This document shows, piece after piece, positions 762 through 64,000 of a stretch of 64,000 nucleotides of DNA; position 1 is the stretch's first letter; the number at the start of each line of letters is the position of its first letter. The notes beneath the pieces are model-generated. The model saw only the letters and a list, made by a program, of their open reading frames with translations. It did not search any database and was not told the DNA's origin. The DNA comes from Schmidtea polychroa (lineage: Eukaryota), in NCBI GenBank assembly GCA_044892525.1, contig CM097885.1, forward strand, positions 29,886,001-29,950,000, read 5' to 3'. The translations under genes were made by a program, and so were the position numbers.

Positions 762-865
762 TTTTTAAATTTAAACTATATAATTATTGTTTATATTGAT
801 AATTTAAATGAACTCTGTTTTTAAATACCTATATATATCAAAGTTTTTAAAATTATTTCATTAAA

Positions 866-1330: not shown

Positions 1331-1438
1331 TTATTTATCATTCAATTAAAACAAAAACATACTGCAATCTGATTGGATGATAAACAATAGTCATAGGTAT
1401 AAAAACCCTGTACCATTTCATTTTAATCATAATTCACA

Positions 1439-1858: not shown

Positions 1859-1954
1859 TGTTGTATTTAATAAATGTATTTAGTCATATTTGTTTTCGCT
1901 TATATTCTATATTTTCTATAAACAAATATATACTATAGTTTTAAAATACTAATA

Positions 1955-2313
1955 ATGACTACAGAAAAAGGTTAATATGATTAGTTAATTATCGAATTAT
2001 TTAATATTTAGAATTTATAATAAACTTTTTATTGGAAAAGTTAGCAGAAATATCTGGTGTGAAAATTGAGGACATATTATCTGTTACAAACGCATTAAAT
2101 ATCGGCTGGGTAGCAGAGAGTGAAGATTCGGAATTTGATGAAACAGATGAAGAAAACACTCAAGATGATGAGGAAAGCATTCAAGAAATTGATGAACCTA
2201 TGGAGGAATTTACGGATACTGAACCGTGTGTATATAGGGATTGTATAGATCATGTTGTTGAAAATGTTATGAACTGTGGAGATGATGAATGTGAATGTGT
2301 TAATAAATTTTAG
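1955..2313 (+). CDS. Acidic protein with a Cys-rich tail, probably spliced (exon 1955-1970, intron 1971-2011, exon 2012-2313)
   Basis: ATGACTACAGAAAAAG|GT…TTTAG|AA joins in frame to ORF 2032..2313, giving MTTEKEFIINFLLEKL…. Confidence 0.5.
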
Positions 2314-2481
2314 TGAATATTTAAAGAATAATATTTAGAATTTAGAAAGTTTTGTCTTGAATATTTTTACAAGTAATTTTGTGAACAGTACCCTTGTGAC
2401 TTGTTGAGTGTGAGTAGTACATTTGTGTGCAGTACCCTTAGGGGGACAGAATATTTTGTCAGATAGACTCTGTATATATAT

Positions 2482-2482
2482 G

Positions 2483-2525
<43 letters not shown>
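2482..2525. repeat. (ATA)n microsatellite
   Basis: Direct reading of about 14 units. Confidence 0.95.
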
Positions 2526-2527
<2 letters not shown>

Positions 2528-2664
2528 CTTAGAAAATAATAATATGTAATCAACGATTTAAACAAAATTATATTATTAAGTATTCTATAATTAAAACAAA
2601 AGAATTATATAATCAATGATTTAAACAAATTATATAATCATCGATAATTAAAACAAAATTATTA

Positions 2665-3090
2665 ATTCTAAAAATATTAGACATCGTTCTAAAAGTATGA
2701 TGTAATCATTCTAAAAATAATTGGCATCGTTCTAAAAATATTAGGCATCGTTCTAAAAATATTAGGCATCGTTCTAAAAATAATAGACATCGTTCTAAAA
2801 ATATTAGGCATCGTTCTAAAAGTATTACGTAATCGCTCTTAAAATATTTGGCATCGTTCTAAAAATATTTGGCATCGTTCTAAAAATATTTGGCATCGTT
2901 CTAAAAATATTAGACATCGATTACGTAATAGTTCTAAAAATATTAGGCATCGTTCTAAAAATATTAGGCATCGTTCTAAAAGTATGACGTAATCGTTCTA
3001 AAAATATTAGGCATCATTCTAAAATATTAGACATCATTCTAAAAATGTGATGAGTCATTGTCTTTGTTCTAAAAATGTGATGAGTCATCG
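2665..3090. repeat. Subterminal tandem array, ~21-bp unit GGCATCGTTCTAAAAATATTA
   Basis: More than 15 head-to-tail degenerate units with no unique spacers. Confidence 0.9.
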
Positions 3091-3130
3091 TATGATAAAA
3101 AATCTATATCTCATTAGAAAGTTCTTGCAC

Positions 3131-3427
3131 AGAGCTTTAAAATAAGCTATCGTCCAATAAATTCGGATAATGGGAACAATAATTTTTGGGATGAAAAAAA
3201 GTAGGTCCCCGCTGGATCACTTAATAATATTTTGAAAAATAATAATAATTTAACGTTGAAAAGATGGTGGTCATCAATTGTTAATAACATTAAAACTATT
3301 AAAGATATATATGATACCTATAGCTCATTCGAAAGGTCTTGGACTGAGCTTTAAGATGAGGTATCGGTCAATAAAATCTGTTGGCAGGAACATTAATTTT
3401 TGGGATGAAAAAAAGTGTGAGCCCGCC
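3131..3427. repeat. Degenerate ~80-bp direct repeat pair (3131-3211 and 3346-3427) near the Polinton end
   Basis: GAGCTTTAA…GGAACA.TAATTTTTGGGATGAAAAAAAGT…CCCGC occurs twice. Confidence 0.75.
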
Positions 3428-3737
3428 CGGCCAATTAATTAAAACAAAAAATTAAAAAAAAATTTTTTTCCCGGGGGGGGGAGGGGGTATATGTGGCCGG
3501 GGGAGCTCCTGGCCGGGGGAGCCCACATCCTACTACTAAAAGACCAGAATGGGAATCCTCAAAGCCAATTTCAGAGAAAGATGTATTCTTTGCAATAAAA
3601 AATAGCAAAGATACAGCGCCAGGAGAGGACGGAATTCCGGTCAGAGCATAGAAAGAATGGATGCCTGAGGACCCATTGACTCCAATATTCAATAGAATAA
3701 TCGAATCCAAAACTATCCCTGATTCTTGGAAAAATAA

Positions 3738-37610: not shown

Positions 37611-38250
37611 TGAGGATGTCAACTAGCAAGTTGCTATTTGACTAATTTATAATTTTATAAATCTTAATCTTGAAGAATAAAAAATTTTATGAAAATAGTA
37701 AAACTGCTCTGAGAGGACAGTGGTTTTTTTTTTTTTTTTTTTTTTTTTTCACTGTCCTCTCAACAGTTTTTTTTGATCCGGATCATTTTTTTTTTTATTT
37801 CAACCTCTTTCGTTTATCAAATCTCTTCCAATATACAAGCTGGCCAGACTTATATATCAGAATCAATTCGATAATAGCAGCACACCTTATTATTCGCTTC
37901 TCGCTCACGAAGTCGATTTCATCGGCGTTTTAAGTGTACTGCTCGAAAGTACAAATGAATTCGAAAGCGAATCCGAAAGAGGTCCGAAAACAACCAAGAA
38001 ATAAATGTGCACATTATAGAATCGATCCGGGGGTGTTCGAAAGACTGGTGGCGATAATTACCGGTTCGCCACCATCACCCGTTTCAATATTTTTTTTTTC
38101 ATATTTATGTTTAAAAATTAATTAATTAATAAATAAATAAAATAAACAAGATTTATTTCCTAAGATACCCACACTATATATTTTTTTAATATTTATTTTC
38201 AAAAATTATTTTCAATATTATTTTCAAATTTTTAATATTATTTTATGTTG

Positions 38251-38332
38251 AAAAAAAACTAACCTCAGATGTGATTTGAACCACTAGCATTTGAACCACA
38301 ATGCCAGTCTATTCCCACTGCGCTATCGGAGT
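38251..38332 (-). ncRNA. Putative Pol III tRNA-like small RNA cassette 1
   Basis: On -: A box TAGCGCAGTGG, B box GGTTCAAATC, T8 terminator. Confidence 0.5.
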
Positions 38333-38483
38333 TCGGATTTTCGTCACTTTTTAAATTTTTAATTAATAAAAAAATAAAATAAAATAAATAAAATAAAATA
38401 AAAATAAATAAAATAAAATATAAATCTAAGATACCCACACCATTTTCAATATTATTTTCAAATTTTTAATATTATTTTATGTT

Positions 38484-38566
38484 AAAAAAAACTAACCGTA
38501 GTTAGGATTTGAACCGCTATCCATTTGAACCACAATGCCAGTCTATTCCCACTGCGCTATCGGAGT
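38484..38566 (-). ncRNA. Putative Pol III tRNA-like small RNA cassette 2
   Basis: On -: A box TAGCGCAGTGG (38549-38559), B box GGTTCAAATCC (38505-38515), T8 terminator (38484-38491). Confidence 0.55.
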
Positions 38567-38603
38567 TCGGATTTTTGTCATTTTTTAACTTTTTATTATA
38601 AAA

Positions 38604-39899
38604 ATGAATAATATAAATCTTAAAATTCAAGAAAAAAATAAATTAAATCTTGATTATAATAAAGAATTTACTCATGAAATAAAAAAAATCGATATTTTAA
38701 AAATCTCTCCAACTTCAGGATCTATTGCAAACTTAAATCGTAAGGGTGATATAGTTTTTCAATCTCTTCAAACATCAAACCCAATAGATATTTGTAATGC
38801 CAAATTATATTATAAAATTGAATTAGAAATTGAAGCAAACAAAGATATAACCCTAGAAAACAATTTCTTTCCAAATTTATTCTCCAACATGAGATTAAAA
38901 CTAGGATCATCAGAAATTGAAACTGTTTTACATCCAGGAGTATATTCTACAAAGTTAAATTTTATTTTGACTGGTTGTGATTATAAAAATGAATATGGTG
39001 AATTAACAGGTTGGATTCCTGATGTTAATAAAGGAGATTTAGATAAAGATGGTTTGGATATAAATTATGTTTACTATAAAAGAGCTGAACTTTATAAATC
39101 TAAAAAATTTGAAGGTTATTTTGAATTAAAACACTTGTTCGGATTCCTTCAAAACTATAACCGGGTGCTCCATAATGTTTTTATAGAACTCATCTGTAAT
39201 AGACTAGAAGGTGATAAAAGATTGTTCTATGGAGCTGCAGATACAAAAGCTAAATTAAAATTATCAACACTTGAATTGCATATACCTGAATGGACATTAA
39301 ATCCACATTCTGAAATCAAACTCCTTGAAAGATTAAATTCCAACAAGTCTATAAATGTAAATTATTTAAATAGAATCTGTAGTGAATTTAGTATCACAGA
39401 GGGTTCAACATATTCTATAAAGGTGGCAAATTTAGCATACCGACCAAGATATATCTTGATTGGATTCAAAGAAGTAGATTCATCTTTCCAAAAAAATAAC
39501 AACTTGTTTATTCAAAAGATTGGAAATGATAATTTAAAAACAATCCAAATTCAATTAAATAGTTCTTATTATCCAATAAATAGAATGGAATTTAATATTG
39601 AAAATAATGAAAACATATTCCCATATCTAAATTATATTGAAACATGTTATGATTTCAAAGTTGAACCGCAATTAAGTTTAGAAGATTTCAAAAATTTATA
39701 TTCTATATTTTGTATAAATGTTTCAGACCAAGATGATCGCCTAGCCATAAATAATGTTGATGTTACACTTCATGTAACAAAGGATTCTAATTTTAAAGCT
39801 AAAGTATATACATTAATATTAGAAGAAAAGAAAATAGAAATGAAATTATATGGTGGAAAGATTTCAATTATTGAAAATGTTAGGGGAGATTCTTCATAA
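38604..39899 (+). CDS. Polinton major capsid protein (double jelly-roll, putative)
   Basis: 431 aa with Polinton MCP-like pieces (LENNF..NLFS, L.HLFGF, RPRYILIGF, LNS..YP) and a fitting gene context. Confidence 0.8.
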   Translation: MNNINLKIQEKNKLNLDYNKEFTHEIKKIDILKISPTSGSIANLNRKGDIVFQSLQTSNPIDICNAKLYYKIELEIEANKDITLENNFFPNLFSNMRLKLGSSEIETVLHPGVYSTKLNFILTGCDYKNEYGELTGWIPDVNKGDLDKDGLDINYVYYKRAELYKSKKFEGYFELKHLFGFLQNYNRVLHNVFIELICNRLEGDKRLFYGAADTKAKLKLSTLELHIPEWTLNPHSEIKLLERLNSNKSINVNYLNRICSEFSITEGSTYSIKVANLAYRPRYILIGFKEVDSSFQKNNNLFIQKIGNDNLKTIQIQLNSSYYPINRMEFNIENNENIFPYLNYIETCYDFKVEPQLSLEDFKNLYSIFCINVSDQDDRLAINNVDVTLHVTKDSNFKAKVYTLILEEKKIEMKLYGGKISIIENVRGDSS

Positions 39900-41305
39900 G
39901 TAGATTCCCCCATAAAAAAACTTTTAAAATAAGTAAATATTGGAGATGCGAAACTTGTAATTGTCAAGTTACTAGACATCACAAAGCAAGTCATCTCAAA
40001 ACTAAAAAACATATAGGAGGCGATATTACACGAACAGGAGGTGATCTACAATCTTCAAAAACAACATCTACAATATTAAAACCTTTTACTACAGAAAAAT
40101 ATCCAGGTGAAAGACATTTATTCCGTCACAATTATACTGGACCAGGAACAAGATTAGATATTAGATTAGATGAAAATAATAATCCTAAACAAGGAGAAAA
40201 ACCAATAAATAGAATTGATCAAGCAGCTTTAAAACATGACATTGCTTACAACTCTGAAGATCTTAGAGATAGACATGTTGCTGATGTGAATTTAATACAT
40301 GATTTAAATAATATACAAAATCCATCAAGCAAGGAAAAGATTCAAAGAGCTCTAGTTAAATTAGCAATGAAAGGTAAGATTTTCATAGGAGCAGGACTTC
40401 CTAGAAAAGCAAAAGATGTTGCTAATAAAAGGATTATTGAACAAGCAGACGTTGAAAGATCCCTTGAGAATCAACTCTTTGAGAATAAACCCTTACAAAC
40501 CCCAACAGAATCACAAATAAAATATGCCAACGAATTACACCATGAATTTAGAAAAAATAAAAAATATTTAAAAGTTCAAGTATATGAAAAAGATCAAACA
40601 TGGTCTGCTGATTTAGTCTTTATGCCCAAATCATCAGACCCTGAAAAATATAAAATAATTTTAACAGTAATAGATTTATATACAAGATTTGCTTTTGCAA
40701 GGTGTTTAGAAAATAAAACAGGATATTCAATTACAGAAGCATTTGAAAATATATTTGAACAACATCAAAGAATTCCAAAATATTTATGGTGTGATAAAGG
40801 AACAGAATTTTATAACAAAGTTTTTACAAAGTTTTTAAATGAAAATGATATTAAATTATATTCAACAGAAAACGAAGGAAAAGCAGTTGTGGTTGAAAGA
40901 TTAAATAGAACATTAAAAAATAAAATGTGGAAATATTTTACTGCTATTGGAAAACAAAAATGGAACAATGAATTGTTACAAAAGATTGTAAATGAATATA
41001 ATAATGATGTACATAGTTCTATAAAATCAACACCTTTAAATGCTTCCTTGAATCCTGAAACAGTTAAAGTAATAAATGTTGATACAACCCCTATAAAACC
41101 AAAATTTAAAATTGGTGACCGCGTAAGAATATTTAAATATAAAAATAAATTTGAAAAAGGATTCACAGCAAAATGGACAAATGAAATTTTTATTATAAAT
41201 AAAATACATCATACAACTCCAATAACATATGGTATCATCGATTTAAATAATGAAAAAATATTAGGTAGATTTTATAATAATGAACTACAGAAAACAGATT
41301 TTTAA
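39884..41305 (+). CDS. Polinton retroviral-like integrase with in-frame N-terminal C2H2 finger and parvovirus-type PLA2 domain; start codon unresolved
   Basis: Frame is open from 39884: CETC…H…H, NYTGPGT…DQAALKHDIAY, then DDE core (WSADL, CDKGTEF, VERLNRT) and KFKIGDRVRI. Confidence 0.88.
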   Translation, partial: GRFFISRFPHKKTFKISKYWRCETCNCQVTRHHKASHLKTKKHIGGDITRTGGDLQSSKTTSTILKPFTTEKYPGERHLFRHNYTGPGTRLDIRLDENNNPKQGEKPINRIDQAALKHDIAYNSEDLRDRHVADVNLIHDLNNIQNPSSKEKIQRALVKLAMKGKIFIGAGLPRKAKDVANKRIIEQADVERSLENQLFENKPLQTPTESQIKYANELHHEFRKNKKYLKVQVYEKDQTWSADLVFMPKSSDPEKYKIILTVIDLYTRFAFARCLENKTGYSITEAFENIFEQHQRIPKYLWCDKGTEFYNKVFTKFLNENDIKLYSTENEGKAVVVERLNRTLKNKMWKYFTAIGKQKWNNELLQKIVNEYNNDVHSSIKSTPLNASLNPETVKVINVDTTPIKPKFKIGDRVRIFKYKNKFEKGFTAKWTNEIFIINKIHHTTPITYGIIDLNNEKILGRFYNNELQKTDF

Positions 41306-41316
41306 GTCGACAAGCC

Positions 41317-42096
41317 CTAAAATAAACTTTTCCACATTTCAGCTTCTTCTCTATCCAAATAAATATAATTATATTTTTCTTTCCAATGATTATCAACAAA
41401 CATATCAAACATATTCTTATCAGGTTCAACATTTGAAAATAAATCATTATAAATCATATTCTTATCACGCTTGTCTAATTTAAAAAATATAAAACAATTA
41501 GAATTATTTCTTATAGAGTTTTTATCTAAATCATAATATGTTTGAGATATATAAATAACATTACAATTATTATGTCTACCTCGTGTAAAGTAACTCTTTT
41601 GAATCTCTTGATTTTTCATGTTAACAACATCATCAAATATAACTAGATTCTTTTTATCTTTAGGAAGTAAATCACAATGTAAAACATCTTCAGGTTTATT
41701 AGAGAATAAGATCTGGATTCCATCCCCTATATAATCATTTTTATTACTAATATCTGATTCTAAAATCTTTTCCTTGTACCAATCAACCATATCACAAGGA
41801 TGAAAAACCTCTTCGGGATATGTATGTTGATTTTTAAAAATATCAATTATAGCTTTTTTAGTTAATTTATTTTCAAATCCACATTTCAAAAGTTGTAATT
41901 CCGGTTGGTTAATGGTTGTAGAATAAAAGATTAAATTATTATAATCCAAAAAACCATCTTCTAATAACATTCTCATAAGAAGAACATTCTTTCCACATCC
42001 AGAAGATCCAATAATTAAGCATCTAAAATTATCAGGAAATACTTTATTATTAAATTTAGATTTATGTCTATTTAAAATTGGTTTCCAAGTATCCAT
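41317..42096 (-). CDS. Packaging ATPase (A32/FtsK-like)
   Basis: GSSGCGKN, LVIFDD, RGRH…ISQ. Confidence 0.9.
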   Translation of the reverse strand: MDTWKPILNRHKSKFNNKVFPDNFRCLIIGSSGCGKNVLLMRMLLEDGFLDYNNLIFYSTTINQPELQLLKCGFENKLTKKAIIDIFKNQHTYPEEVFHPCDMVDWYKEKILESDISNKNDYIGDGIQILFSNKPEDVLHCDLLPKDKKNLVIFDDVVNMKNQEIQKSYFTRGRHNNCNVIYISQTYYDLDKNSIRNNSNCFIFFKLDKRDKNMIYNDLFSNVEPDKNMFDMFVDNHWKEKYNYIYLDREEAEMWKSLF

Positions 42097-42112
42097 TTTT
42101 ATTTATTATAAA

Positions 42113-42718
42113 ATGACAACACAAAACCCTACAGAGGAATCTTTGCAAGAATTAATAAATTCAAATAAAAATAAATCAGTAGTAATCTCTGGTAAAAAAT
42201 ATTTTATTGGAAAACATGTAAAAGAACAAGTTAAAGAACATATAGGGAGTTCCTCCAAATCCGGAGGTATTCTTCCATTAGCTGCTTTAATACCTGCAAT
42301 CATTGCCGGACTATCAGGTGCTGCTGGAATAGCTGGAGGAATTGCAACTACAGTTCAAAAAGCTAAAGAATCTCAAAAGACAGACCTAGAAAAAGAAAAA
42401 CTACAAACTGAAATCGATTCAATGAAGAAGGATCAAGCTAAAGGGGGAGTGTCCGTTGGAAAGGGTCTCTATCTTAATCCATATGAGGGGAGTCTGCAAA
42501 AGTCTCAGGGAAGGGGTCTCTATCTTGATCCTTATAAAGGCCGTGGTTTAAATGATTTTTTAAAAAATCAAATTTCATCATCTGAATCTTTATCTTCAAA
42601 AGATAAAGATGATTTTAAAAAAATATGTAAATCTTTAAAGAATGGATGTCTTTGTAAAATTAAAAATGGTAAAGGTTTATACTTGAAACCCTTTCCAACG
42701 GATCCTTTACCAAAATGA
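42113..42718 (+). CDS. Putative virion core/membrane-active protein resembling adenovirus pX
   Basis: GGILPLAALIPAIIAGL…GIA and repeated G(K/R)GLYL motifs. Confidence 0.6.
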   Translation: MTTQNPTEESLQELINSNKNKSVVISGKKYFIGKHVKEQVKEHIGSSSKSGGILPLAALIPAIIAGLSGAAGIAGGIATTVQKAKESQKTDLEKEKLQTEIDSMKKDQAKGGVSVGKGLYLNPYEGSLQKSQGRGLYLDPYKGRGLNDFLKNQISSSESLSSKDKDDFKKICKSLKNGCLCKIKNGKGLYLKPFPTDPLPK

Positions 42719-42740
42719 TACCATTTTTAATACCATTAAA

Positions 42741-43538
42741 ATGGTATATGAAGAAAGATTAGCACTTTTAAAAAAATTACAATCAGAACAAGATAAATAT
42801 AATAAAAAAGATACAACTCAACACGCTGAATCTATAATATTAAATGAGGTAATCCAACAACAGCAAGGACCAACAATTAAAGCCATAAAAGAGTTAGAAG
42901 TTTTAAAATTTAAAGAGTTGGAAGATAAACAAGATTTAAAAGAATTACCATGGTTGGAAGATTTAAATATAAAACCTCTTATACTTGATCCTAAAATTAA
43001 TGTGAGTTTAAGTAAAACAATTAAACCTACATTTAATATTAATGTTGAAGGATATCAAATAATAACAATTAATAAACATGACTTTCTGTTATATTTAAAT
43101 TCAGAAAATAAATCACGTATTCATTCACAAAATGTTTATAATACTAAACACCTAGATTTTGAATTTACAGATGATTTTTATGGATTAGTTTGTGGATATC
43201 CCTCAGAGAATGTTGATCTTCTAGAAATTAAAAAATATTTAAATTTAATAGAATTAGTACATGGTAGTGCTAAAGCAAAACATATTCAAGATTTAAAGAA
43301 ATATTTAAATAAAAATGAAAGGGGTTATATTGTCACAGAAGGAGAGGGCCAGGGTCAGGGCCAGGGAAAGGGTAAGGAGATAAACCCAATCAATCTTTTT
43401 ATTGAATTAAGAAAACTATTAGCAGCTAAAAAAGCAGGACATAATAATTTAGATTCTGATATTTTAAAGATTTCTAAAGAATTATTAAAACAAGGAATAA
43501 TTTCAAAAGATAAATTTAATAAGTATACGAAGTTATAA
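42741..43538 (+). CDS. Polinton hypothetical protein
   Basis: 265-aa ORF; C-terminal LRKLLAAKKAGHN…I.KEL motif after a GxG linker. Confidence 0.65.
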   Translation: MVYEERLALLKKLQSEQDKYNKKDTTQHAESIILNEVIQQQQGPTIKAIKELEVLKFKELEDKQDLKELPWLEDLNIKPLILDPKINVSLSKTIKPTFNINVEGYQIITINKHDFLLYLNSENKSRIHSQNVYNTKHLDFEFTDDFYGLVCGYPSENVDLLEIKKYLNLIELVHGSAKAKHIQDLKKYLNKNERGYIVTEGEGQGQGQGKGKEINPINLFIELRKLLAAKKAGHNNLDSDILKISKELLKQGIISKDKFNKYTKL

Positions 43539-43560
43539 ATACGAAGTTATAAAATATAAA

Positions 43561-43992
43561 ATGACTCCTTCAATATTAGATTTTTTAAAAACATTTGGAA
43601 TAAATACAAAAACAAATTTTGATTTAAAAGATTATGCAGATTATTTAAATTTAAAAATAAAAATATTAATGAATGATGAATTGTCGAGTCTGAAAGAAGA
43701 CACTCCAAAGAATATCATTATAAATTATCAAAATTCAAATGAAAAAGGATCTCATTGGGTTTGTATATATAATAAATCTATATACTTTGATTCTTTTGGG
43801 ATTAAACCCACTAAAGAAGTTGAAGACTATCTCTCGGACTACACTTTTAATTCTTTACAAGTTCAACCTAATAATACTAAAATATGTGGTATTTTAAGCT
43901 TATATGTTTTGTATAGATTGAATAAATCCAAAGGAGAAGGTTTCACTTCCTTAATCCAAGAAATTTATAATGATTTAAAATCTATACTATGA
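43561..43992 (+). CDS. Adenain-like maturation cysteine protease
   Basis: GSHWV, YFDSFG, QVQ…CG. Confidence 0.9.
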   Translation: MTPSILDFLKTFGINTKTNFDLKDYADYLNLKIKILMNDELSSLKEDTPKNIIINYQNSNEKGSHWVCIYNKSIYFDSFGIKPTKEVEDYLSDYTFNSLQVQPNNTKICGILSLYVLYRLNKSKGEGFTSLIQEIYNDLKSIL

Positions 43993-44759
43993 AAATGGAG
44001 CTTCGCAACCTTCCGGAAGATAATTTTAAAAAAATGGTAAACATAATGTCAGATAAATATTCAAGAACTTTATCTATAAATTCAAAAGAATCAGACTTTA
44101 CTATAAACTTTCAAGATTCAATTAAATTAGATCAAAATTTAAATTATGAATTAGGACTATTATGGTTTTGTGCTTATAATACTATTTTTAATATAACTAA
44201 AGATAATAACATATTTTATTATATAAGCCCAAAATCTACAGATAAGATTATAATAACAATCGAACCCTGAGCTTATGAGATAAAAGATTTAAATAATATA
44301 CTTTCTAAAAAAACAAATGGAGTCATTAAAATTAAAATGGATTTACCAACTTCAAAATGTATAATGACTTTAGAGAATATAGGAATTCATTTTCAAAATA
44401 ATAGTTTTTTTAGAACAATTTTAGGATTTACACGAAACCATTATATCACACCTGTAGTTGAGAATATAACATCAGAAAATATTATAAAAATAATAAATAC
44501 AAACACAATAAATATTCATTGCGATTGTATAACTGGTTCTTATAATAATGGTAAACAAACAAATGTTTTATATTCCTTTCTCTCAAACACAGTTCCTATG
44601 GGATATAAAATAGTTGAAAGAATGAATCCTCCAAATTATTTACCTTTATGTAGAAAATATATAATGGATATTAATTTTAAAATTCTTAATCAAGAAGGAG
44701 AATTGATTGATTTTAATGGAGAAGAGATTTCAATGTATTTACATTTGAAACAGGTCTGA
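43989..44759 (+). pseudogene. Minor capsid (penton-like) protein with an in-frame TGA at 44268-44270
   Basis: ORFs 43989 and 44337 share a frame (IEP*AYEI, probably GGA>TGA). C-terminus reads IHCD.I.GSY.NG…NQEGELIDFNGEEI. Confidence 0.8.
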
Positions 44760-44863
44760 GGAAGTCACAAGGGGGAGAAGGACTAAAAGGGAGAAGGGGG
44801 AGAAGGACTAACGAAGTGTACAAAGGGGGAGAGGAATTCTCAAGTATTTTAATCCCCTAATAA

Positions 44864-45874
44864 ATGAGTTCTTATATTCCATGTAATAGAGGTGGTGGAA
44901 CAATAAAAACAGGGTTTAATACAGAAGAAATATTAACTTTAACAGAAAATAAATATATTAATGAAAGAGGTGATTCAATGAAGGGTGATTTAAGTATGAA
45001 TGCACACAAGATAAAAGATTTATCTTTTCCAGTTGATAATCTCGATGCAGTTAATAAGAAATATGTAGATGGTGTTAAAAAATATACTGATTTAACAACA
45101 ACAAGAATTGAAAGTTCATTAACAACAAAAATTGATTCAATGGAATCAAAGCTTAATAATATCGAACAACGATTTAATGATAAATTTGACAAGTTACAAA
45201 GTCTGTTAACTGAACAAGTTGTAAAGTTAAATACTAGCATATTAAATTCTAAAGATAAACAAATTATTAATACTAAATTTAATACAATATATAATATAAT
45301 AAATGAGATGATTACATCATTTAATAAAAGAATTTCAAATTTAGAGTCTCATGGAACACACATTAACACCACACATAGTATTAGAAAAAGAGCTGCTGAA
45401 TTAGAACAGAATAAAACATTATTACCCCATACATATAAACATTTTATAGAACCAAGTTTAATAACAACAAACAGTAAAGAATGGGGTGTTTTTATGGTTG
45501 TAAAGATTATTGATCCTTATTTCTTTTTGTTTGATGATGATAATGAAAGAATGAAATGGTTTGTGAAATGTGATTATAATAGTAAGCTTGAAAAGGGTGA
45601 TGTTATAATGACTAGTTATGATTTACCACACGGAGATTGGTATGTTAATACTCATTCACATGGACTACATAAAGTTAAAAGTAAGAATATTATTTTTAAA
45701 AGCACACTTGTGGATTATATAGATTTAATATTTTATGAAAAAAAGGTTGATGTTGATGAAGTTCGTAAAGCATTGATGGAATTGTATAAAGATATTCTCT
45801 CAACAAGAGTTTCTTTTGATATCCGAGTATTGGTACCAGATGGTGCTCAGAAGAATAAAGTCTTATTTTTTTAA
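44864..45874 (+). CDS. Putative fibre/spike-like protein
   Basis: GDLSMN..KI.DL..P….DAVNKKYVD motif, a coiled coil and a globular C-terminus. Confidence 0.55.
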   Translation: MSSYIPCNRGGGTIKTGFNTEEILTLTENKYINERGDSMKGDLSMNAHKIKDLSFPVDNLDAVNKKYVDGVKKYTDLTTTRIESSLTTKIDSMESKLNNIEQRFNDKFDKLQSLLTEQVVKLNTSILNSKDKQIINTKFNTIYNIINEMITSFNKRISNLESHGTHINTTHSIRKRAAELEQNKTLLPHTYKHFIEPSLITTNSKEWGVFMVVKIIDPYFFLFDDDNERMKWFVKCDYNSKLEKGDVIMTSYDLPHGDWYVNTHSHGLHKVKSKNIIFKSTLVDYIDLIFYEKKVDVDEVRKALMELYKDILSTRVSFDIRVLVPDGAQKNKVLFF

Positions 45875-45882
45875 TTATTAAA

Positions 45883-46473
45883 ATGGAAGAAGTAAGAGAA
45901 GAAAAAATTTACCCAGAATTGCGATCATCAGGATATTATTCTTCCAAGGCCTCGGCTCCCACAGAACTTGAAATTATGAGAGTAAAAGAATTTAAATCAG
46001 AAACCTTACATTTACAAGATTTATTAAAGCATTATAAAAAAATTAAAAATAGATGGAATAAAGGGAATACAGTTTTAAAAGTTATAGGTTATTCTTTAGG
46101 ATTTGCATCTGCAATATTAACAGTTATTTTACCCATAACTTTACCAGTTGTTACTCTTGCACCTGTAATACTTGGAAGTATTTCTGTAGCTGATGGTTTC
46201 TTAACTGAAATAGTTTCATTATCTTATACTTCTAAAAAGAAAAGTTTATATAGAGAAGTTTGTTTATCAATAGAATTAGGAATCTCTAAATTATTTTTAT
46301 TTCAATTAAAAGCTTTGGAAGATGGAATCCTAACAGACGAAGAAATAATGAAATCAAATCAAATAATACAAGATATTAAAAATGAGGTTATAAGATTAAA
46401 AAGTGCTAATGTTATAAGTAATGAATATTCTAAAAATATTAAACGAGAGAAGTGGCTAAAGAATCATACATAA
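45883..46473 (+). CDS. Predicted membrane protein with a central hydrophobic hairpin
   Basis: VIGYSLGFASAILTVILPITLPVVTLAPVILGSISV flanked by helical segments. Confidence 0.65.
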   Translation: MEEVREEKIYPELRSSGYYSSKASAPTELEIMRVKEFKSETLHLQDLLKHYKKIKNRWNKGNTVLKVIGYSLGFASAILTVILPITLPVVTLAPVILGSISVADGFLTEIVSLSYTSKKKSLYREVCLSIELGISKLFLFQLKALEDGILTDEEIMKSNQIIQDIKNEVIRLKSANVISNEYSKNIKREKWLKNHT

Positions 46474-46633
46474 AAAAATTTATTGCCCTTCAAAAGGTTG
46501 ATGTTGTCACTCTTAAATTAATTGTTGACATTTTTAAAAGAAAAAAATCATTTGATAGAATCTGATGTTAACTTTTCGAAATTAGTTTTTAGAACCTCTT
46601 TATGATCTTTAAATTCTTTATCATTTAGACCTT

Positions 46634-49600
46634 TTATATATTCAGGATCAGTATTAATTTAAGTTCTAAACATATAGGATTAAAAACTTGAGAATATAAA
46701 GGTTTCTCAATTCTCTCAGGATAAATGATTTCAACATTATAAATATCAAGATCAGTAATCTTTGTACCATATAACTGATTCAATCTATCAAGATTTTTTA
46801 TTATCGGTATTAAATTATTTCCTATAGGAAGAGTTGTCTTTAAATCACTTAGTATGAATATTTTGTCATCATAATTTGATAATGATACTTTTTGGGATTC
46901 TATCAAGTAAATATCATGCTTTTCACTTTTAAGTTGATGTATTTCATCAATTTTATCTTTATGATTTGGATTCAATGTATCTATATAATCTTGATGAGAA
47001 AGATTCTTTGCTACACATCTCTGAATTCCTTTACATCTGTTATCCTTTACAGGTTTTTCTCCCTGTCCGTCAGGTCCTTTAGGGAATATAGGATATCTAT
47101 GTGTAATGCTTTCTTCTGTTTCTGGGGTTTTAAATATAAATGTATGTTCTTCAAATTTAGGATTTGTAAATGTTTCATATGAATATTGTTTAGCACGAAT
47201 AAATATTCCATTTTCTATAGGAGTAAAAGGTTTTTCATCTTTAAACGAAAATAATTCTCCAGATGAATTTATTAAATTTGAAAGTATAGGATTTTCAGAG
47301 ATATCACTTTGTAAATCGTGAGTTCTTATTGCTAAAAACATTGAATCTGTATCCATTGCATGCATTGCTATATTCGATCCATATATAGGTTGTAAGATGT
47401 TATAATATGTTTCATACATTTGTAATTTTGAAAGTTCTAAAATTGCAAAGCCAATAAATATTGGTTTATTATATGTTTTCTCATAATTCTTTAGTTCTAC
47501 TGCAGTAAGACTTTCAGAAAATACTTGTGCGTTTTTAAATGTAGGCTTTCCTAGCATACGATTATAACGGGCTATATCTTTCGGGGTATTTGTTAGGAGT
47601 TCAATATGAGTATATTTATCAACATTCTCCATTGTCTTCCCAAAGACTGAATTGTTTAAAAGTTTATAATTATTGTCTTTTAAAAGGTTACCTTCTCTTT
47701 TTGCAATGTTTCGACACCTAATGTTCTCCTCGATAAAAGTCTTCATGAATGCTGCTTGTTTAAATCTTATGACACTATGAACTTTTTTTAATATCATTCC
47801 TTGTGAAAGATAAAACTGGAGGAGTCTATAGTGACAAAGATAATAAGTTCGATCTGTTTGATCACAAAGAAATTTCATTGTTGGAGGTTTATCTTGTGAG
47901 ATTTGCCAGAGTGAAAGTTCGTTGATATCAATCTTTCTTCTTATAGGAGCTAAAGGGAAATGTCTTGTTCTTGATTTTATATCATCTGGGTAGTCGAGGT
48001 CACATTCTACAAAGTATCCTATTGGAGAATCTTTAGGAGTTGAAAGTATTTCATTCATAAGAGTCTTTAAATATTCTTCTGGAGGGCATTCTATTTCTGG
48101 AAGTCCTTCAGAGGAGTATATTTCTTGAAAGTCACTCATTGGTAAATATTGAGTCATAATTCCTGAATATAAAGCTGTTGCATCTATATAAAGTATAAAT
48201 AGAAGATTTTTCATTCCTTCTAATACTTCTTTTAGTTCCTCATTGTTAAGTTTTATATATGGATCAGGGTGTTTAGAGATTCTTCGGCTAGTAGTTATTG
48301 CATTTCTAGCTTTTATTTCTCTATTCCCCATTACTGAAGATACTCCTCCTCTAATGTTTGTTTTAATTTGATTAAACATATCTTGGTCGGTTAAAAGATC
48401 TATAATTTTATCAGATTCTGGAAGATCTGAAGTCCAAATGGTATATAACATAGTATCCCAAGCTAAAGAAGGAGCTGTTATATAATTATAAGGTTTAAGA
48501 ACAAAAGACTTTGTAAATTCTTCAAAGCAATCTGCTAGAATATAAACATCTAGGGATAAGTACATACTTGTATATTCTCCTAAAGTTTTACAGTTGAAAA
48601 GATCCCACATTTTATTTGCTCGAGAATATTCTTGATTTGTAATATGAGATGTTTGAAGTTGGGAATAGAAATCTTCTTTCTCTGGTAATTTTGTTTCATT
48701 ATATTTTTCAAATGAATCAACATAGTCATAGGGATATATTCCTTTTGCTAAGCATGTAGGATATTCTTCTGGGGGGATATTATTTTTTTCCAAGAATTCT
48801 CGAGTGATTTTAAAATTTTCTGCTTTCATTGTTTTAGCTATTCCATCTAGAGACATTTGGAGAAAGTTTAACGAGTCTATAAATTTTAATTTTCCATATT
48901 CAACTGATTTATATTTTTCCTTTGTAAGTCCTATAACTTTGAAAGAGTTTTTAGCATTTTCTGCTAAATGTTTAATAAATAGATGTATGTCATAACCAAA
49001 AAGATTATGAAATATAACTGGTACAAATTTAGGAGTATGACAATTAAGATTACAATTTCTATGGGCTGCTCCTCGATAATTATTTTCCTTTTTTAAATGA
49101 TCGTGATCTATAACTTTATCATCAGGAAGAATGTCTTGTTTACACATCCAACAGTTGGAAGTATTTTCATATTCTTGTTGTTGTTGATTAGAAATTTTTT
49201 GAGGATACTTTGTTTTTAATATTTTAAATATTTCATGTTCTAGATCATTTATACGTTTAGTAAAATGATTTAAAACATCTTCTGAAGTTCCTTGAAATGC
49301 ATATTCTCTAGATTCTATGAGTTCAGGATAATTACTTTTAAATAATAATTTATAAGCAGATGGTAATTGTTTAGTTTTTTTAACACTATTAGGTTTATTT
49401 CTTTTTCTTAGAAAGGCTTTCATCCTCTCTGGTTTCATCTTCTGTTTAGAGGCTTTCCATTCATCCATGAGTTTATATTTTTCTATTATTTTTAAATATT
49501 GCATAATTATATCTTGTTTACGATTTATAGATTCAAAGTCTCCATAGACAACTCCTAATGTTTGTAATAAATTTGAAAAGTTTTTAAAATACATCCTGGG

Positions 49601-50881
49601 ATCTGTAGGCATTCTAATTAAAGCTGGATCAACTTTTTCACAAAATCTTGCATGTTTAATCATAGAGTTTTTAGTTGTTGAATAATGAAGACATCTTTTA
49701 CATGTTCCTCCTCCACTAGTTGGATTCTCTGCTGATGTAAAAGCTTGAAAGTCTTTTATTAAAACATAATGTTGATTATTTCCTTCTTCCAAGATTAAAA
49801 GATATATCTCCTTCGTGCTATCACTATCAGAAATATAAATTGGAATAATATCTTTCCTTCCATGTCCACATCCTTTAACATGTTCATAAATATTAAGTTT
49901 AAGATTATTTAGTTTTTCAAATTCTGGAATGTCTTCTAGTTTCATTGGGTGTGTGAATCCCTTGGGAAATATTAATTCATTTTCATATTGTTTGTATTTT
50001 GAAACTCTTTGAGGGTTTTCAGCTTGAGGATGTAAATATGCAAGTATTGACCACATGAAACATTTGTTATCCTTATTCTGTACATTTATAACAACCCTAG
50101 ATCTAAAGGGTGTTTGAATATAAGATTTAGGATTAGGTGGTAATCCTCTCCAATAATCAATCACTAAAGTTTGGAAAGAGTTGAATACTAAGTTTGAATC
50201 TCCTAATTCATTTTCAACCTCTTCTTGTTTTGCTTCTACTGCTTGAATTATTTCTTTGATGCTTTTATTAAATCCTCTAGTTGAAAATAAATATTTAAAA
50301 GGTATTCCAATTTCAACATCTAAAGGAGTTGTCTTTTCTTCTGGTCCTCTCCAATATTTTGCTTTGATTGTAATTTTATATTTTATAACATTATACCTTG
50401 TTGGTTTATAATTTTTTAAAGCTTCAGTGAAAGAATTTTTAATATTTTTTTTATTTCTCCTTATATATTCTCCAGGGGTTGCAGGTCCATTAATTTTTAA
50501 TTGAAATTCATCTATATGATTAAAATCATCCCAGTTGTATTTTTCTCTTTCAACATGATCAGGTTCTCCTTCTGAATGACATTCTTCAACGTCAGAATTT
50601 TGTTTTTTATTTTTACATTCTTTTAAATGTCTTAAATAATAGAAATTTAGTTTTGTTGAAAAGTTACAATGAGGACATGTAAATATTTCTCTATTTTTCC
50701 CGATACAATTTTCAAAATGTTTATTATATCCAGAATGTAGAAATCTTCCTTTACATTTAGTACAAAGTTTTGAATTTGTATCATTAAGATTATTTTCTTT
50801 TAATAAATGAGCTTTCGATTTTAAGTGAGAAATTAATCCAGTTTTATTTTTAAAAACTTTATTGCAAATATTACAATTCAT
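46634..50881 (-). CDS. Protein-primed family B DNA polymerase with N-terminal zinc fingers and an endonuclease-VII-like insert
   Basis: GDFES, FHNLFGYD, KGIYPY, YIDATALY, KLLNNSVFGK, DTDS, KGI; insert CWMC…DHDH…YRGAAHRNCN. Confidence 0.95.
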   Translation of the reverse strand: MNCNICNKVFKNKTGLISHLKSKAHLLKENNLNDTNSKLCTKCKGRFLHSGYNKHFENCIGKNREIFTCPHCNFSTKLNFYYLRHLKECKNKKQNSDVEECHSEGEPDHVEREKYNWDDFNHIDEFQLKINGPATPGEYIRRNKKNIKNSFTEALKNYKPTRYNVIKYKITIKAKYWRGPEEKTTPLDVEIGIPFKYLFSTRGFNKSIKEIIQAVEAKQEEVENELGDSNLVFNSFQTLVIDYWRGLPPNPKSYIQTPFRSRVVINVQNKDNKCFMWSILAYLHPQAENPQRVSKYKQYENELIFPKGFTHPMKLEDIPEFEKLNNLKLNIYEHVKGCGHGRKDIIPIYISDSDSTKEIYLLILEEGNNQHYVLIKDFQAFTSAENPTSGGGTCKRCLHYSTTKNSMIKHARFCEKVDPALIRMPTDPRMYFKNFSNLLQTLGVVYGDFESINRKQDIIMQYLKIIEKYKLMDEWKASKQKMKPERMKAFLRKRNKPNSVKKTKQLPSAYKLLFKSNYPELIESREYAFQGTSEDVLNHFTKRINDLEHEIFKILKTKYPQKISNQQQQEYENTSNCWMCKQDILPDDKVIDHDHLKKENNYRGAAHRNCNLNCHTPKFVPVIFHNLFGYDIHLFIKHLAENAKNSFKVIGLTKEKYKSVEYGKLKFIDSLNFLQMSLDGIAKTMKAENFKITREFLEKNNIPPEEYPTCLAKGIYPYDYVDSFEKYNETKLPEKEDFYSQLQTSHITNQEYSRANKMWDLFNCKTLGEYTSMYLSLDVYILADCFEEFTKSFVLKPYNYITAPSLAWDTMLYTIWTSDLPESDKIIDLLTDQDMFNQIKTNIRGGVSSVMGNREIKARNAITTSRRISKHPDPYIKLNNEELKEVLEGMKNLLFILYIDATALYSGIMTQYLPMSDFQEIYSSEGLPEIECPPEEYLKTLMNEILSTPKDSPIGYFVECDLDYPDDIKSRTRHFPLAPIRRKIDINELSLWQISQDKPPTMKFLCDQTDRTYYLCHYRLLQFYLSQGMILKKVHSVIRFKQAAFMKTFIEENIRCRNIAKREGNLLKDNNYKLLNNSVFGKTMENVDKYTHIELLTNTPKDIARYNRMLGKPTFKNAQVFSESLTAVELKNYEKTYNKPIFIGFAILELSKLQMYETYYNILQPIYGSNIAMHAMDTDSMFLAIRTHDLQSDISENPILSNLINSSGELFSFKDEKPFTPIENGIFIRAKQYSYETFTNPKFEEHTFIFKTPETEESITHRYPIFPKGPDGQGEKPVKDNRCKGIQRCVAKNLSHQDYIDTLNPNHKDKIDEIHQLKSEKHDIYLIESQKVSLSNYDDKIFILSDLKTTLPIGNNLIPIIKNLDRLNQLYGTKITDLDIYNVEIIYPERIEKPLYSQVFNPICLELKLILILNI

Positions 50882-51039
50882 TTTTAGAAAAAATTTTTTT
50901 TCTGGATACGTTGTTTTTAAATTTTAAATTTTTATATATTTATTTTTATTTTTATTTTTATTTTTTTTTATTTTTATTTTTTTTATTTTTTTATTTTTAT
51001 TTTTATTTTTTTTTTATTTTTTTTATATTTATATTCTAG

Positions 51040-51190
51040 CAGCTTGCCAAGCTATCGACCTGCCAAGCTGTCGACTTACCAAGCTGTCGACTTGCCAAGA
51101 CCGCAGCGATTGCATCATCGACTTGACAAACTATCGACTTGATAAACTGGCGACTTGATAAACTGGCGACTTGATAAACTGGCGACCTGC
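51040..51190. repeat. Subterminal 16-17-bp tandem repeats (CTTGCCAAGCTGTCGA / CTTGATAAACTGGCGA)
   Basis: About eight units next to the right TIR. Confidence 0.85.
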
Positions 51191-51191
51191 A

Positions 51192-51497
51192 AGTAGTGTG
51201 TATCTATCCCTAACGACCGCAAGCCGACAAACGTTTTTCATAGTTTTATCAGTATTTTTTTCCCTGTTTTATTAACATTTTGTGTTGTTTTTTTAATATT
51301 TTTGTTGTTTTTTAAGTTTTTATTTTGAAAGCAAAATGTCTTCGGAATAAAGAAATTAAAAGATATAGGTTTTTAAGGTTTTAAGTGTTTTTCTTTACGT
51401 TTATGGGGGAAAAATAGGTATAAAACGGGAAAAAATAGGTATAAAACATGAAAACAGTTGGGAGGCTTGTGGTCGTTAGGGATAGATACACACTACT
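51192..51497 (-). repeat. Right TIR
   Basis: Ends …GGTCGTTAGGGATAGATACACACTACT. Confidence 0.93.
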
Positions 51498-59300: not shown

Positions 59301-60003
59301 AGTTCATATTCCCATTACAAGCAGAGGAAATATCGAAAACCCATTCAGACAAATTCGATGATACAATAAGAAAAATGATAAAAGACAAGAACGTCCTTGA
59401 TCTGCCAAATAAAAGCCCTCTTATGGACGCTGTCATCTATTCGCCAAAAGAGAGGGGAGGGCTTGGAATCACAAAAGTTAGTGACGAATATCTAATCCAA
59501 GCCCTCAACAGATTCATAAAACTCATGAACAGCGGCCACCTCCCCATTGTCAAAATCTTGAGAGAAGAGCTAATATATGTCGCACAAACAAGAACAGAAG
59601 TGGATATCCAGAACATCAGAGATGCCTGCAAGTGGTTGGAAGGAAGCTACGAGCACAAAAGTCAGAAAAATGCAAAGAAGTCGTGGCTGGACAAAACAAG
59701 AGAATCAATTAAAGCCCTAAAGACAACCCAGGGAATCGAGATAACATTCATTTATAAAGTAGACTCCGTGGGTTGCTCAATAAAATGTAGCACAGACAAT
59801 AAGCCAGATTGGATCCTACCTCCAAACTTAGATGATATATCAAAAACCCTCCACTGGATGATAAAGGACGCATATTTCAAAATATGGTTGGCTGTAAAAT
59901 GCCAAGGTTATATTATAAGTCTTCCGACATCCGACGAAATGGAATGGAAAATGCCCCGGGTCCTTAAAGACCCAGAATGGAAATTCATTATAAAGGTCCG
60001 GGC
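56360..60003 (+). mobile_element. Second copy of the E/D element, truncated before CCHC/endonuclease
   Basis: Near identical to 32680-36322. Confidence 0.9.
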
Positions 60004-63000
60004 TTTTTTTAATATAACTAAAGATAATAACATATTTTATTATATAAGCCCAAAATCTACAGATAAGATTATAATAACAATCGAACCCTGAGCTTATGAG
60101 ATAAAAGATTTAAATAATATACTTTCTAAAAAAACAAATGGAGTCATTAAAATTAAAATGGATTTACCAACTTCAAAATGTATAATGACTTTAGAGAATA
60201 TAGGAATTCATTTTCAAAATAATAGTTTTTTTAGAACAATTTTAGGATTTACACGAAACCATTATATCACACCTGTAGTTGAGAATATAACATCAGAAAA
60301 TATTATAAAAATAATAAATACAAACACAATAAATATTCATTGCGATTGTATAACTGGTTCTTATAATAATGGTAAACAAACAAATGTTTTATATTCCTTT
60401 CTCTCAAACACAGTTCCTATGGGATATAAAATAGTTGAAAGAATGAATCCTCCAAATTATTTACCTTTATGTAGAAAATATATAATGGATATTAATTTTA
60501 AAATTCTTAATCAAGAAGGAGAATTGATTGATTTTAATGGAGAAGAGATTTCAATGTATTTACATTTGAAACAGGTCTGAGGAAGTCACAAGGGGGAGAA
60601 GGACTAAAAGGGAGAAGGGGGAGAAGGACTAACGAAGTGTACAAAGGGGGAGAGGAATTCTCAAGTATTTTAATCCCCTAATAAATGAGTTCTTATATTC
60701 CATGTAATAGAGGTGGTGGAACAATAAAAACAGGGTTTAATACAGAAGAAATATTAACTTTAACAGAAAATAAATATATTAATGAAAGAGGTGATTCAAT
60801 GAAGGGTGATTTAAGTATGAATGCACACAAGATAAAAGATTTATCTTTTCCAGTTGATAATCTCGATGCAGTTAATAAGAAATATGTAGATGGTGTTAAA
60901 AAATATACTGATTTAACAACAACAAGAATTGAAAGTTCATTAACAACAAAAATTGATTCAATGGAATCAAAGCTTAATAATATCGAACAACGATTTAATG
61001 ATAAATTTGACAAGTTACAAAGTCTGTTAACTGAACAAGTTGTAAAGTTAAATACTAGCATATTAAATTCTAAAGATAAACAAATTATTAATACTAAATT
61101 TAATACAATATATAATATAATAAATGAGATGATTACATCATTTAATAAAAGAATTTCAAATTTAGAGTCTCATGGAACACACATTAACACCACACATAGT
61201 ATTAGAAAAAGAGCTGCTGAATTAGAACAGAATAAAACATTATTACCCCATACATATAAACATTTTATAGAACCAAGTTTAATAACAACAAACAGTAAAG
61301 AATGGGGTGTTTTTATGGTTGTAAAGATTATTGATCCTTATTTCTTTTTGTTTGATGATGATAATGAAAGAATGAAATGGTTTGTGAAATGTGATTATAA
61401 TAGTAAGCTTGAAAAGGGTGATGTTATAATGACTAGTTATGATTTACCACACGGAGATTGGTATGTTAATACTCATTCACATGGACTACATAAAGTTAAA
61501 AGTAAGAATATTATTTTTAAAAGCACACTTGTGGATTATATAGATTTAATATTTTATGAAAAAAAGGTTGATGTTGATGAAGTTCGTAAAGCATTGATGG
61601 AATTGTATAAAGATATTCTCTCAACAAGAGTTTCTTTTGATATCCGAGTATTGGTACCAGATGGTGCTCAGAAGAATAAAGTCTTATTTTTTTAATTATT
61701 AAAATGGAAGAAGTAAGAGAAGAAAAAATTTACCCAGAATTGCGATCATCAGGATATTATTCTTCCAAGGCCTCGGCTCCCACAGAACTTGAAATTATGA
61801 GAGTAAAAGAATTTAAATCAGAAACCTTACATTTACAAGATTTATTAAAGCATTATAAAAAAATTAAAAATAGATGGAATAAAGGGAATACAGTTTTAAA
61901 AGTTATAGGTTATTCTTTAGGATTTGCATCTGCAATATTAACAGTTATTTTACCCATAACTTTACCAGTTGTTACTCTTGCACCTGTAATACTTGGAAGT
62001 ATTTCTGTAGCTGATGGTTTCTTAACTGAAATAGTTTCATTATCTTATACTTCTAAAAAGAAAAGTTTATATAGAGAAGTTTGTTTATCAATAGAATTAG
62101 GAATCTCTAAATTATTTTTATTTCAATTAAAAGCTTTGGAAGATGGAATCCTAACAGACGAAGAAATAATGAAATCAAATCAAATAATACAAGATATTAA
62201 AAATGAGGTTATAAGATTAAAAAGTGCTAATGTTATAAGTAATGAATATTCTAAAAATATTAAACGAGAGAAGTGGCTAAAGAATCATACATAAAAAAAT
62301 TTATTGCCCTTCAAAAGGTTGATGTTGTCACTCTTAAATTAATTGTTGACATTTTTAAAAGAAAAAAATCATTTGATAGAATCTGATGTTAACTTTTCGA
62401 AATTAGTTTTTAGAACCTCTTTATGATCTTTAAATTCTTTATCATTTAGACCTTTTATATATTCAGGATCAGTATTAATTTAAGTTCTAAACATATAGGA
62501 TTAAAAACTTGAGAATATAAAGGTTTCTCAATTCTCTCAGGATAAATGATTTCAACATTATAAATATCAAGATCAGTAATCTTTGTACCATATAACTGAT
62601 TCAATCTATCAAGATTTTTTATTATCGGTATTAAATTATTTCCTATAGGAAGAGTTGTCTTTAAATCACTTAGTATGAATATTTTGTCATCATAATTTGA
62701 TAATGATACTTTTTGGGATTCTATCAAGTAAATATCATGCTTTTCACTTTTAAGTTGATGTATTTCATCAATTTTATCTTTATGATTTGGATTCAATGTA
62801 TCTATATAATCTTGATGAGAAAGATTCTTTGCTACACATCTCTGAATTCCTTTACATCTGTTATCCTTTACAGGTTTTTCTCCCTGTCCGTCAGGTCCTT
62901 TAGGGAATATAGGATATCTATGTGTAATGCTTTCTTCTGTTTCTGGGGTTTTAAATATAAATGTATGTTCTTCAAATTTAGGATTTGTAAATGTTTCATA

Positions 63001-64000
63001 TGAATATTGTTTAGCACGAATAAATATTCCATTTTCTATAGGAGTAAAAGGTTTTTCATCTTTAAACGAAAATAATTCTCCAGATGAATTTATTAAATTT
63101 GAAAGTATAGGATTTTCAGAGATATCACTTTGTAAATCGTGAGTTCTTATTGCTAAAAACATTGAATCTGTATCCATTGCATGCATTGCTATATTCGATC
63201 CATATATAGGTTGTAAGATGTTATAATATGTTTCATACATTTGTAATTTTGAAAGTTCTAAAATTGCAAAGCCAATAAATATTGGTTTATTATATGTTTT
63301 CTCATAATTCTTTAGTTCTACTGCAGTAAGACTTTCAGAAAATACTTGTGCGTTTTTAAATGTAGGCTTTCCTAGCATACGATTATAACGGGCTATATCT
63401 TTCGGGGTATTTGTTAGGAGTTCAATATGAGTATATTTATCAACATTCTCCATTGTCTTCCCAAAGACTGAATTGTTTAAAAGTTTATAATTATTGTCTT
63501 TTAAAAGGTTACCTTCTCTTTTTGCAATGTTTCGACACCTAATGTTCTCCTCGATAAAAGTCTTCATGAATGCTGCTTGTTTAAATCTTATGACACTATG
63601 AACTTTTTTTAAAATCATTCCTTGTGAAAGATAAAACTGGAGGAGTCTATAGTGACAAAGATAATAAGTTCGATCTGTTTGATCACAAAGAAATTTCATT
63701 GTTGGAGGTTTATCTTGTGAGATTTGCCAGAGTGAAAGTTCGTTGATATCAATCTTTCTTCTTATAGGAGCTAAAGGGAAATGTCTTGTTCTTGATTTTA
63801 TATCATCTGGGTAGTCGAGGTCACATTCTACAAAGTATCCTATTGGAGAATCTTTAGGAGTTGAAAGTATTTCATTCATAAGAGTCTTTAAATATTCTTC
63901 TGGAGGGCATTCTATTTCTGGAAGTCCTTCAGAGGAGTATATTTCTTGAAAGTCACTCATTGGTAAATATTGAGTCATAATTCCTGAATATAAAGCTGTT
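60004..64000. mobile_element. Partial duplicate of Polinton 2 (equivalent to ~44184-48179): penton C-part, 60685-61695, 61704-62294 and the pPolB C-part
   Basis: Offset 15821, identical proteins and the same penton TGA. Confidence 0.95.

Follow-up and report, generated by a model that had tools for sequence, protein, structure and literature searches.

We analysed a window of 64,000 nucleotides from Schmidtea polychroa, and all positions below refer to this whole stretch. Polintons are related to adenoviruses, and the window contains a full-length Polinton/Maverick inserted in a Gypsy integrase gene and surrounded by Ulp1-bearing non-LTR retrotransposons (Table 1). The element has terminal inverted repeats (TIRs), an identical 6-bp sequence on both flanks that represents the target-site duplication, and four hallmark genes matched by Pfam, namely PolB (PF03175), the retroviral-like integrase (PF00665), the A32-type packaging ATPase (PF04665) and the double-jelly-roll capsid (PF21738). 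It is thus a Polinton/Maverick, and the sequence-only reading had rightly placed the A/B-box cassettes inside such an element. Pfam gave no support for the protease candidate. The left arm, where the features described here are located, is AT-rich and repeat-prone.

Table 1. Positions of the Polinton and of the features in and around its left arm
Feature	Position	Strand	Details
Full-length Polinton/Maverick	37334..51497		14,164 bp; AGTAGT termini, 6-bp target-site duplication
Left TIR	37334..37600	+	95% alike over 226 bp with the right TIR
Inverted repeat	37703..37770		Around a 26-nt A/T run; ends at the next minus-strand T4 (37703)
Structured RNA candidate	37795..37992	-	198 nt; begins at the T4 of unit C; 10-bp closing stem
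Pre-miRNA-like hairpin	37814..37874	-	61 nt; inside the 198-nt domain
Unit C (putative)	37987..38090	-	A box 38071-38061; B box GGATCGATTC 38028-38018; spacing 43; T4 37990-37987
Tandem duplication	38208..38600		Period 234, ~88% identical; includes both unit flanks
Unit B (putative)	38251..38344	-	A box 38325-38315; extra B-box word at 38297; B box 38282-38272; T8 38258-38251
Unit A (putative)	38484..38578	-	A box 38559-38549; extra B-box word at 38531; B box 38515-38505; T8 38491-38484
Major capsid protein gene	38604..39899	+	Double-jelly-roll, PF21738, E 2e-26
Right TIR	51211-51497		Partner of the left TIR

Several further observations concern the element and its relatives in the window. Each TIR (37334-37609 and 51194-51497) is closed by a short inverted copy of the terminal word, giving it the look of a mini-element. 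Among ten ORF starts examined between 38604 and 50881, nine had an A-rich AAATG context, often after TA. Upstream of the integrase, an unannotated ORF (39947-40369) encodes a phospholipase A2-like domain (PF08398, E 1e-9); it has no in-frame ATG at its start, so it is possibly spliced or fused. The probable minor capsid gene (43989-44759) carries one in-frame stop near 44270, and the same break was present in a partial second copy of the Polinton (gene ending at 60580). This copy (60003-64000) is 99.95% identical to 44182-48179, and the left arm is absent from it. It is joined straight into a NeSL-like retrotransposon, a junction that represents either a recent rearrangement or an assembly duplicate. 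The end of a second Polinton-like family lies at 123-3538, where a piece of an A32 ATPase gene (123-578) stands head-to-head with a TBP-like ORF (866-1330, PF00352); TBP is also a subunit of TFIIIB. The A/B-box scan found no A/B unit in this part.

The sequence-only reading had reported a duplicated minus-strand unit of A box, B box and T8 run with an offset of 234, transcribed divergently from the major capsid gene, and every one of these features was recovered where it had been described. Both units, A and B, point away from the plus-strand capsid gene, which is identified by its Pfam match. Their A box is TAGCGCAGTGG in both cases, and the B box is GGTTCAAATCC in unit A and GGTTCAAATCA in unit B. 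The A-to-B-box spacing is 44 nt in unit A and 43 nt in unit B, which is the spacing of tRNAs, and in both units the T8 run follows 13 nt after the B box. When transcription is taken to start 12-19 nt before the A box, as a general rule, the predicted RNAs are 84-91 nt for unit A and 83-90 nt for unit B. The earlier figure of ~80 nt for the two RNAs is thereby corrected to a predicted 83-91 nt.

Both the 5′ and the 3′ flanks are common to the two copies, indicating copying at the DNA level and not retroposition. Units A and B thus go back to one duplication event and count statistically as one event. The B-box word GGTTCAAAT occurs twice per unit, and its first copy overlaps the TTGTGGT "His loop"; an internal repeat as long as this doubled word appeared in 2/1000 and 0/1000 shuffles of the two units, respectively. 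The two copies differ at 2 positions in the 58 nt up to the first B-box word and at 1 position in the 51 nt from the T run, and their 3′ parts differ at 7/30 positions compared with 3/109 in the adjoining segments (Fisher p 0.0009, with segments picked after looking). None of the seven 3′-part differences falls inside the 10-nt B-box word (chance 0.04). On sequence grounds, this is what would be expected if the promoter is kept while the 3′ part is free or diversifying. The same pattern could also arise by gene conversion, and since the units are ~88% identical, the kept boxes may be an effect of a young duplication. Downstream of the terminators, the two duplicated spacers (38160-38175 and 38427-38441) both retain CTAAGATACCCACAC, a word richer in GC that is possibly a Pol II or replication element.

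To assess the pattern statistically, the window was compared with block-wise dinucleotide shuffles, using box consensus sequences from general knowledge. The strict pattern of A box, B box and T4 occurred twice in the 64-kb window and in 0/60 shuffles; when one extra mismatch was allowed, there was 1 match in the 60. The two cassettes of the sequence-only reading were both real, and it had missed a third unit, C, as well as the structured domain behind it. Unit C lies 254 bp further out on the same strand and is divergent in sequence, with 33/77 positions (43%) identical to unit B in register. A looser consensus, likewise from general knowledge and adopted only after unit C had been seen, gave just three matches on both strands of the 64 kb, all within 500 bp, on the same strand and with a spacing of 43-44. 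Shuffled windows gave a mean of 0.25 matches at spacings of 30-70 and 0.017 at spacings of 41-46, and shuffles of the local stretch gave 1/2000 and 0/2000. These three same-strand units, each with an A box, a B box and an oligo-T run, have the anatomy of type-2 Pol III genes as read from the sequence. No A/B unit was found at the right end of the Polinton in the scan of the window.

The spacing was compared with that in viral contigs, which were scanned for the two box words of the units at an allowed spacing of 39-47. There were 108 loci with both words, of which 106 were tRNAs; the spacing was 43 in 92 loci, 44 in 15 and 45 in 1. As 107/108 loci fall at 43-44, the units keep the exact promoter geometry of tRNAs. 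Both B-box variants also occur in annotated Schmidtea mediterranea tRNAs (the set of PMC7962491), and the variant of unit C, GGATCGA, is present in planarian Ala and initiator tRNAs. The A box of units A and B is 10/11 like that of the planarian initiator tRNA.

We then considered whether the units could be tRNAs. ARAGORN called no tRNA gene in the 64-kb window, and an Rfam search at E up to 10 returned only chance matches, far below gathering scores. The sequence-only reading had stated that the acceptor and anticodon stems do not pair, and this was borne out: with G-U allowed, the acceptor stem had 4/7 and 5/7 pairs and the anticodon stem 2/5, and the D and T stems had 1/4 and 2/5. In register, 9/21 and 10/21 stem pairs formed in the two units, which is near chance. 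With unpaired stems and both ARAGORN and Rfam negative, units A and B were rejected as tRNAs. The TTGTGGT motif does lie at the register of an anticodon loop (+24), and the His likeness proposed from it was compared with 61 His and 53 other tRNAs from viral contigs, mostly phage. These were the 114 distinct ARAGORN-called tRNAs kept of 224 segments after uncalled segments, anticodons off register and duplicates had been dropped. Outside the loop, likeness of 28 positions to His and other tRNAs was 7.2 and 7.4 for unit A (p 0.82) and 8.2 and 7.6 for unit B (p 0.03, one-sided, uncorrected). Against one planarian tRNA-His row, ~10/30 positions outside the boxes and loop were alike by eye. A His origin of the units is possible; beyond the loop itself, it is not supported by these sequence comparisons, and the "His loop" is explained as well by the duplicated B-box word.

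Copies of the units were also sought elsewhere. The 21-nt unit core had no exact match in viral contigs or prokaryote genomes, and no further copy of a unit was found in the 64-kb window. The T8 run at 13 nt after the B box and the flanks common to the copies do not agree with the LINE-related or A-rich tail of a tRNA-derived SINE or with copying through RNA. The capsid protein falls in a cluster of 9 members in public assemblies that are 98% identical. Capsid relatives were absent from viral contigs and were found at 33 metagenome loci (24-53% identity). None of the 33 loci had the A and B pair, and ARAGORN found no tRNA gene in any of them; gene order differs there, with other genes upstream of the capsid gene and no recognised element end, which makes this a weak comparison.

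At the RNA level, the folding of units A and B did not surpass that of shuffles (z -0.6 to -1.3), and the best folds of the two are unlike each other, which gives no hint that RNA structure is under selection. The RNAs of all units are predicted to be 83-104 nt long, and the longest helix in A and B is 9 bp. Unit C has a 9-bp hairpin spanning the A box and a fold z of -0.3. The 198-nt domain behind unit C folded strongly, with z of -6.0 for the minus strand and -3.5 for the plus strand. The 61-nt hairpin inside it has 27 pair positions, comprising 19 Watson-Crick pairs, 6 G-U pairs and 2 mismatches with no A-C, and its fold z was -4.2 on the minus strand versus -0.6 on the plus strand. This strand asymmetry ranked 3-4 of 1598 windows in a sequence whose strands are skewed, so it is reached elsewhere too. 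The same-strand position, the richness in G-U and the lack of A-C pairs point to RNA. The hairpin lies ~115 nt behind a T4 of unit C, and units A and B are without such a hairpin. Rfam had no match for the region of the domain and hairpin at E up to 10. Further out, the inverted repeat had z of about -5 and -9, and it is possibly the end of a read-through transcript or a DNA cruciform. A T4-free path from unit C to 37703 is not unusual, being found in 389/2000 shuffles.

From these sequence features, we consider it about evenly balanced that the left end of the Polinton carries a cluster of element-borne, tRNA-derived type-2 Pol III genes making RNAs of 83-91 nt. The element would keep the units for their promoter and terminator, not as tRNAs. 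Host TFIIIC would bind the internal boxes and put TFIIIB on the AT-rich DNA upstream, by the assembly mechanism summarised in PMC7990762, and Pol III would run outward, toward the terminal repeat, and halt at the T8 run. Units A and B would yield uncharged RNAs of 83-91 nt with a common 5′ two thirds and a variable 3′ third, and transcription of unit C may continue past its weak T4 and take in the folded domain with the hairpin. The RNAs of A and B might act by abundance, either as decoys, a role that we only infer, or as sources of tRNA-fragment-like small RNAs. They could load host small-RNA or La-type proteins and blunt the PIWI/Argonaute silencing of the element. In a search of the window for antisense targets, the longest match was 11 nt, which is the chance level. 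Planarian pseudo-tRNAs are described as transcribed and as a source of plentiful fragments, yielding about half of the 5′ fragments (PMC7962491), Polintons as silenced by SMEDWI-2 (PMC8532177), and a single uncharged tRNA-like RNA of MHV68 as functional (PMC4337559).

In layout, the units are closer to gammaherpesvirus TMERs than to VA RNA. The TMERs of MHV68 lie clustered at the left genome end as non-coding, tRNA-like Pol III units, and their tRNA-like head, early terminator and subsequent hairpin resemble unit C with the domain behind it, according to PMC4337559. As described there, however, the heads of TMERs retain the sequence and structure of tRNAs and undergo processing by RNase Z, whereas the cloverleaf is lost in the Polinton units, none of which has a head with kept tRNA structure. 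Units A and B, moreover, would end at T8 without a hairpin. A quite doubtful extension is that animal Polintons have a Pol III small-RNA programme of their own, convergent with TMERs: read-through from unit C would give a folded transcript of 290-390 nt and, from it, the 61-nt hairpin as an element miRNA, with A and B as decoys and TFIIIB gating the capsid promoter.

The TRIMp3 elements Helenus, Ajax and Cassandra are likewise described as keeping Pol III promoter motifs while the fold of the captured small RNA is lost, and the promoter there presumably drives synthesis of a retroelement's template RNA (PMC10886601). The Polinton units, in contrast, belong to a DNA element, face outward and have terminators. 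Polinton-like viruses have tRNA-related genes within the same broad virus group, with 558 Rfam tRNA matches in 8300 genomes and tRNA-His in cryptophyte elements, as given in PMC12220804. Those are tRNAs of protist elements recognisable by Rfam and ARAGORN (PMC12220804), whereas the present units escape both tools and belong to an animal-type Polinton.

As an alternative, TFIIIC and TFIIIB on the boxes may constitute a DNA-level device, such as a chromatin barrier or a nucleosome-free patch at the element end or a switch of the capsid gene, with RNA as a by-product; we regard this as a serious although rather unlikely explanation. The sequence-only reading had named both small RNAs and TFIIIC-bound DNA, and either may hold. 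The A box of unit A is 45 bp from the capsid start codon, so the capsid promoter would have to overlap unit A or its TFIIIB site, and TFIIIB positioned for unit A would cover the start codon itself. The promoter words are kept and RNA structure is not, and it is the B-box word that is doubled in each unit at the shuffle frequencies given above, both of which favour a function of the DNA. Yeast tRNA genes are described as acting as barriers that require intact A and B boxes (PMC7990762), and the account of PMC4337559 allows for an effect in cis even with TMERs. However, the barrier evidence considered here comes from yeast, the right end without an A/B unit would leave only one side of the element shielded, and the adjoining same-strand, G-U-rich hairpin points to RNA.

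The units could also be neutral passengers, which we think unlikely: a host tRNA pseudogene or SINE head would have been captured once or twice, tandem-duplicated and left to decay, and the folded domain would be captured host structured DNA. The lost cloverleaf and the missing fold signal of A and B agree with decay, the AT-rich, repeat-prone left arm would be a suitable setting, and Polinton-like viruses are described as capturing host tRNA and rRNA genes (PMC12220804). Yet boxes, spacing and terminator are intact though all four stems are gone, an outcome that neutral decay would not favour, and three units share one strand and spacing even though C is only 43% like B. The common 5′ and 3′ flanks and the internal T8 are unlike a retroposed SINE. 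The window holds no other copy, and the best match of a unit to LINE ends or other sequence of the window had E 0.6, a weak test on 64 kb only. Nor did the unit core occur in the S. mediterranea tRNA supplement files searched (PMC7962491, all but one file).

A chance motif in a GC-rich patch, doubled by local duplication, is very improbable; A and B do count as one event and T-runs are common in AT-rich DNA, but the strict pattern was absent from all 60 shuffles and an independent third unit has the same spacing.

The sequence-only reading had called the arrangement VA-RNA-like. What stands of this is that a lineage of related DNA viruses has putative Pol III units in tandem, with the box A, box B and terminator of U4 or longer that also belong to the definition of VA RNA. 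Like VA RNA I and II, the units are tandem with internal box A, box B and oligo-T (PMC7589676, PMC4378190), and a tRNA origin has been proposed for VA RNAs in the same two sources. Nevertheless, VA RNA is ~160 nt long (PMC4378190) and is further defined by GGGU-ACCC, a U4 terminus and its three structural domains (PMC7589676), with the apical stem, the central domain holding GGGU-ACCC and the terminal stem, whereas A and B are predicted at 83-91 nt, without these tetranucleotides or such a fold. GGGT and ACCC were absent from units A and B, and a VA-like terminal stem was predicted for unit B (8 expected pairs) and not for unit A (0.03). That the units are true homologues of adenovirus VA RNA, with a long apical stem and a central domain by which they inhibit a dsRNA sensor, is hardly credible: tandem type-2 Pol III units in an adenovirus-related lineage and the one GGGT and one ACCC of unit C speak for it, but A and B have about half the VA length, no GGGT/ACCC, no three-domain fold and no helix beyond 9 bp, the Rfam VA families gave no match at E up to 10 and unit C folds at a z of only -0.3, so VA homology of units A and B is largely refuted.

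The nearest report to a cluster of element-borne Pol III genes is that of intact tRNAs in protist Polinton-like viruses (PMC12220804). Among literature titles and abstract openings, outside most subscription papers and Repbase, no description of Pol III units in an animal Polinton was found. It is already known that viruses make Pol III small RNAs, that Polinton-like viruses carry tRNAs and that mobile elements can hold captured Pol III promoters. Adenoviruses and herpesviruses use Pol III small RNAs for counter-defence and regulation, and the units, if transcribed, would add a virus-like trait to Polintons. They would also offer a model for the origin of VA-type RNAs from tRNA genes, and would represent a class of RNA genes overlooked by scans for tRNAs and with Rfam.
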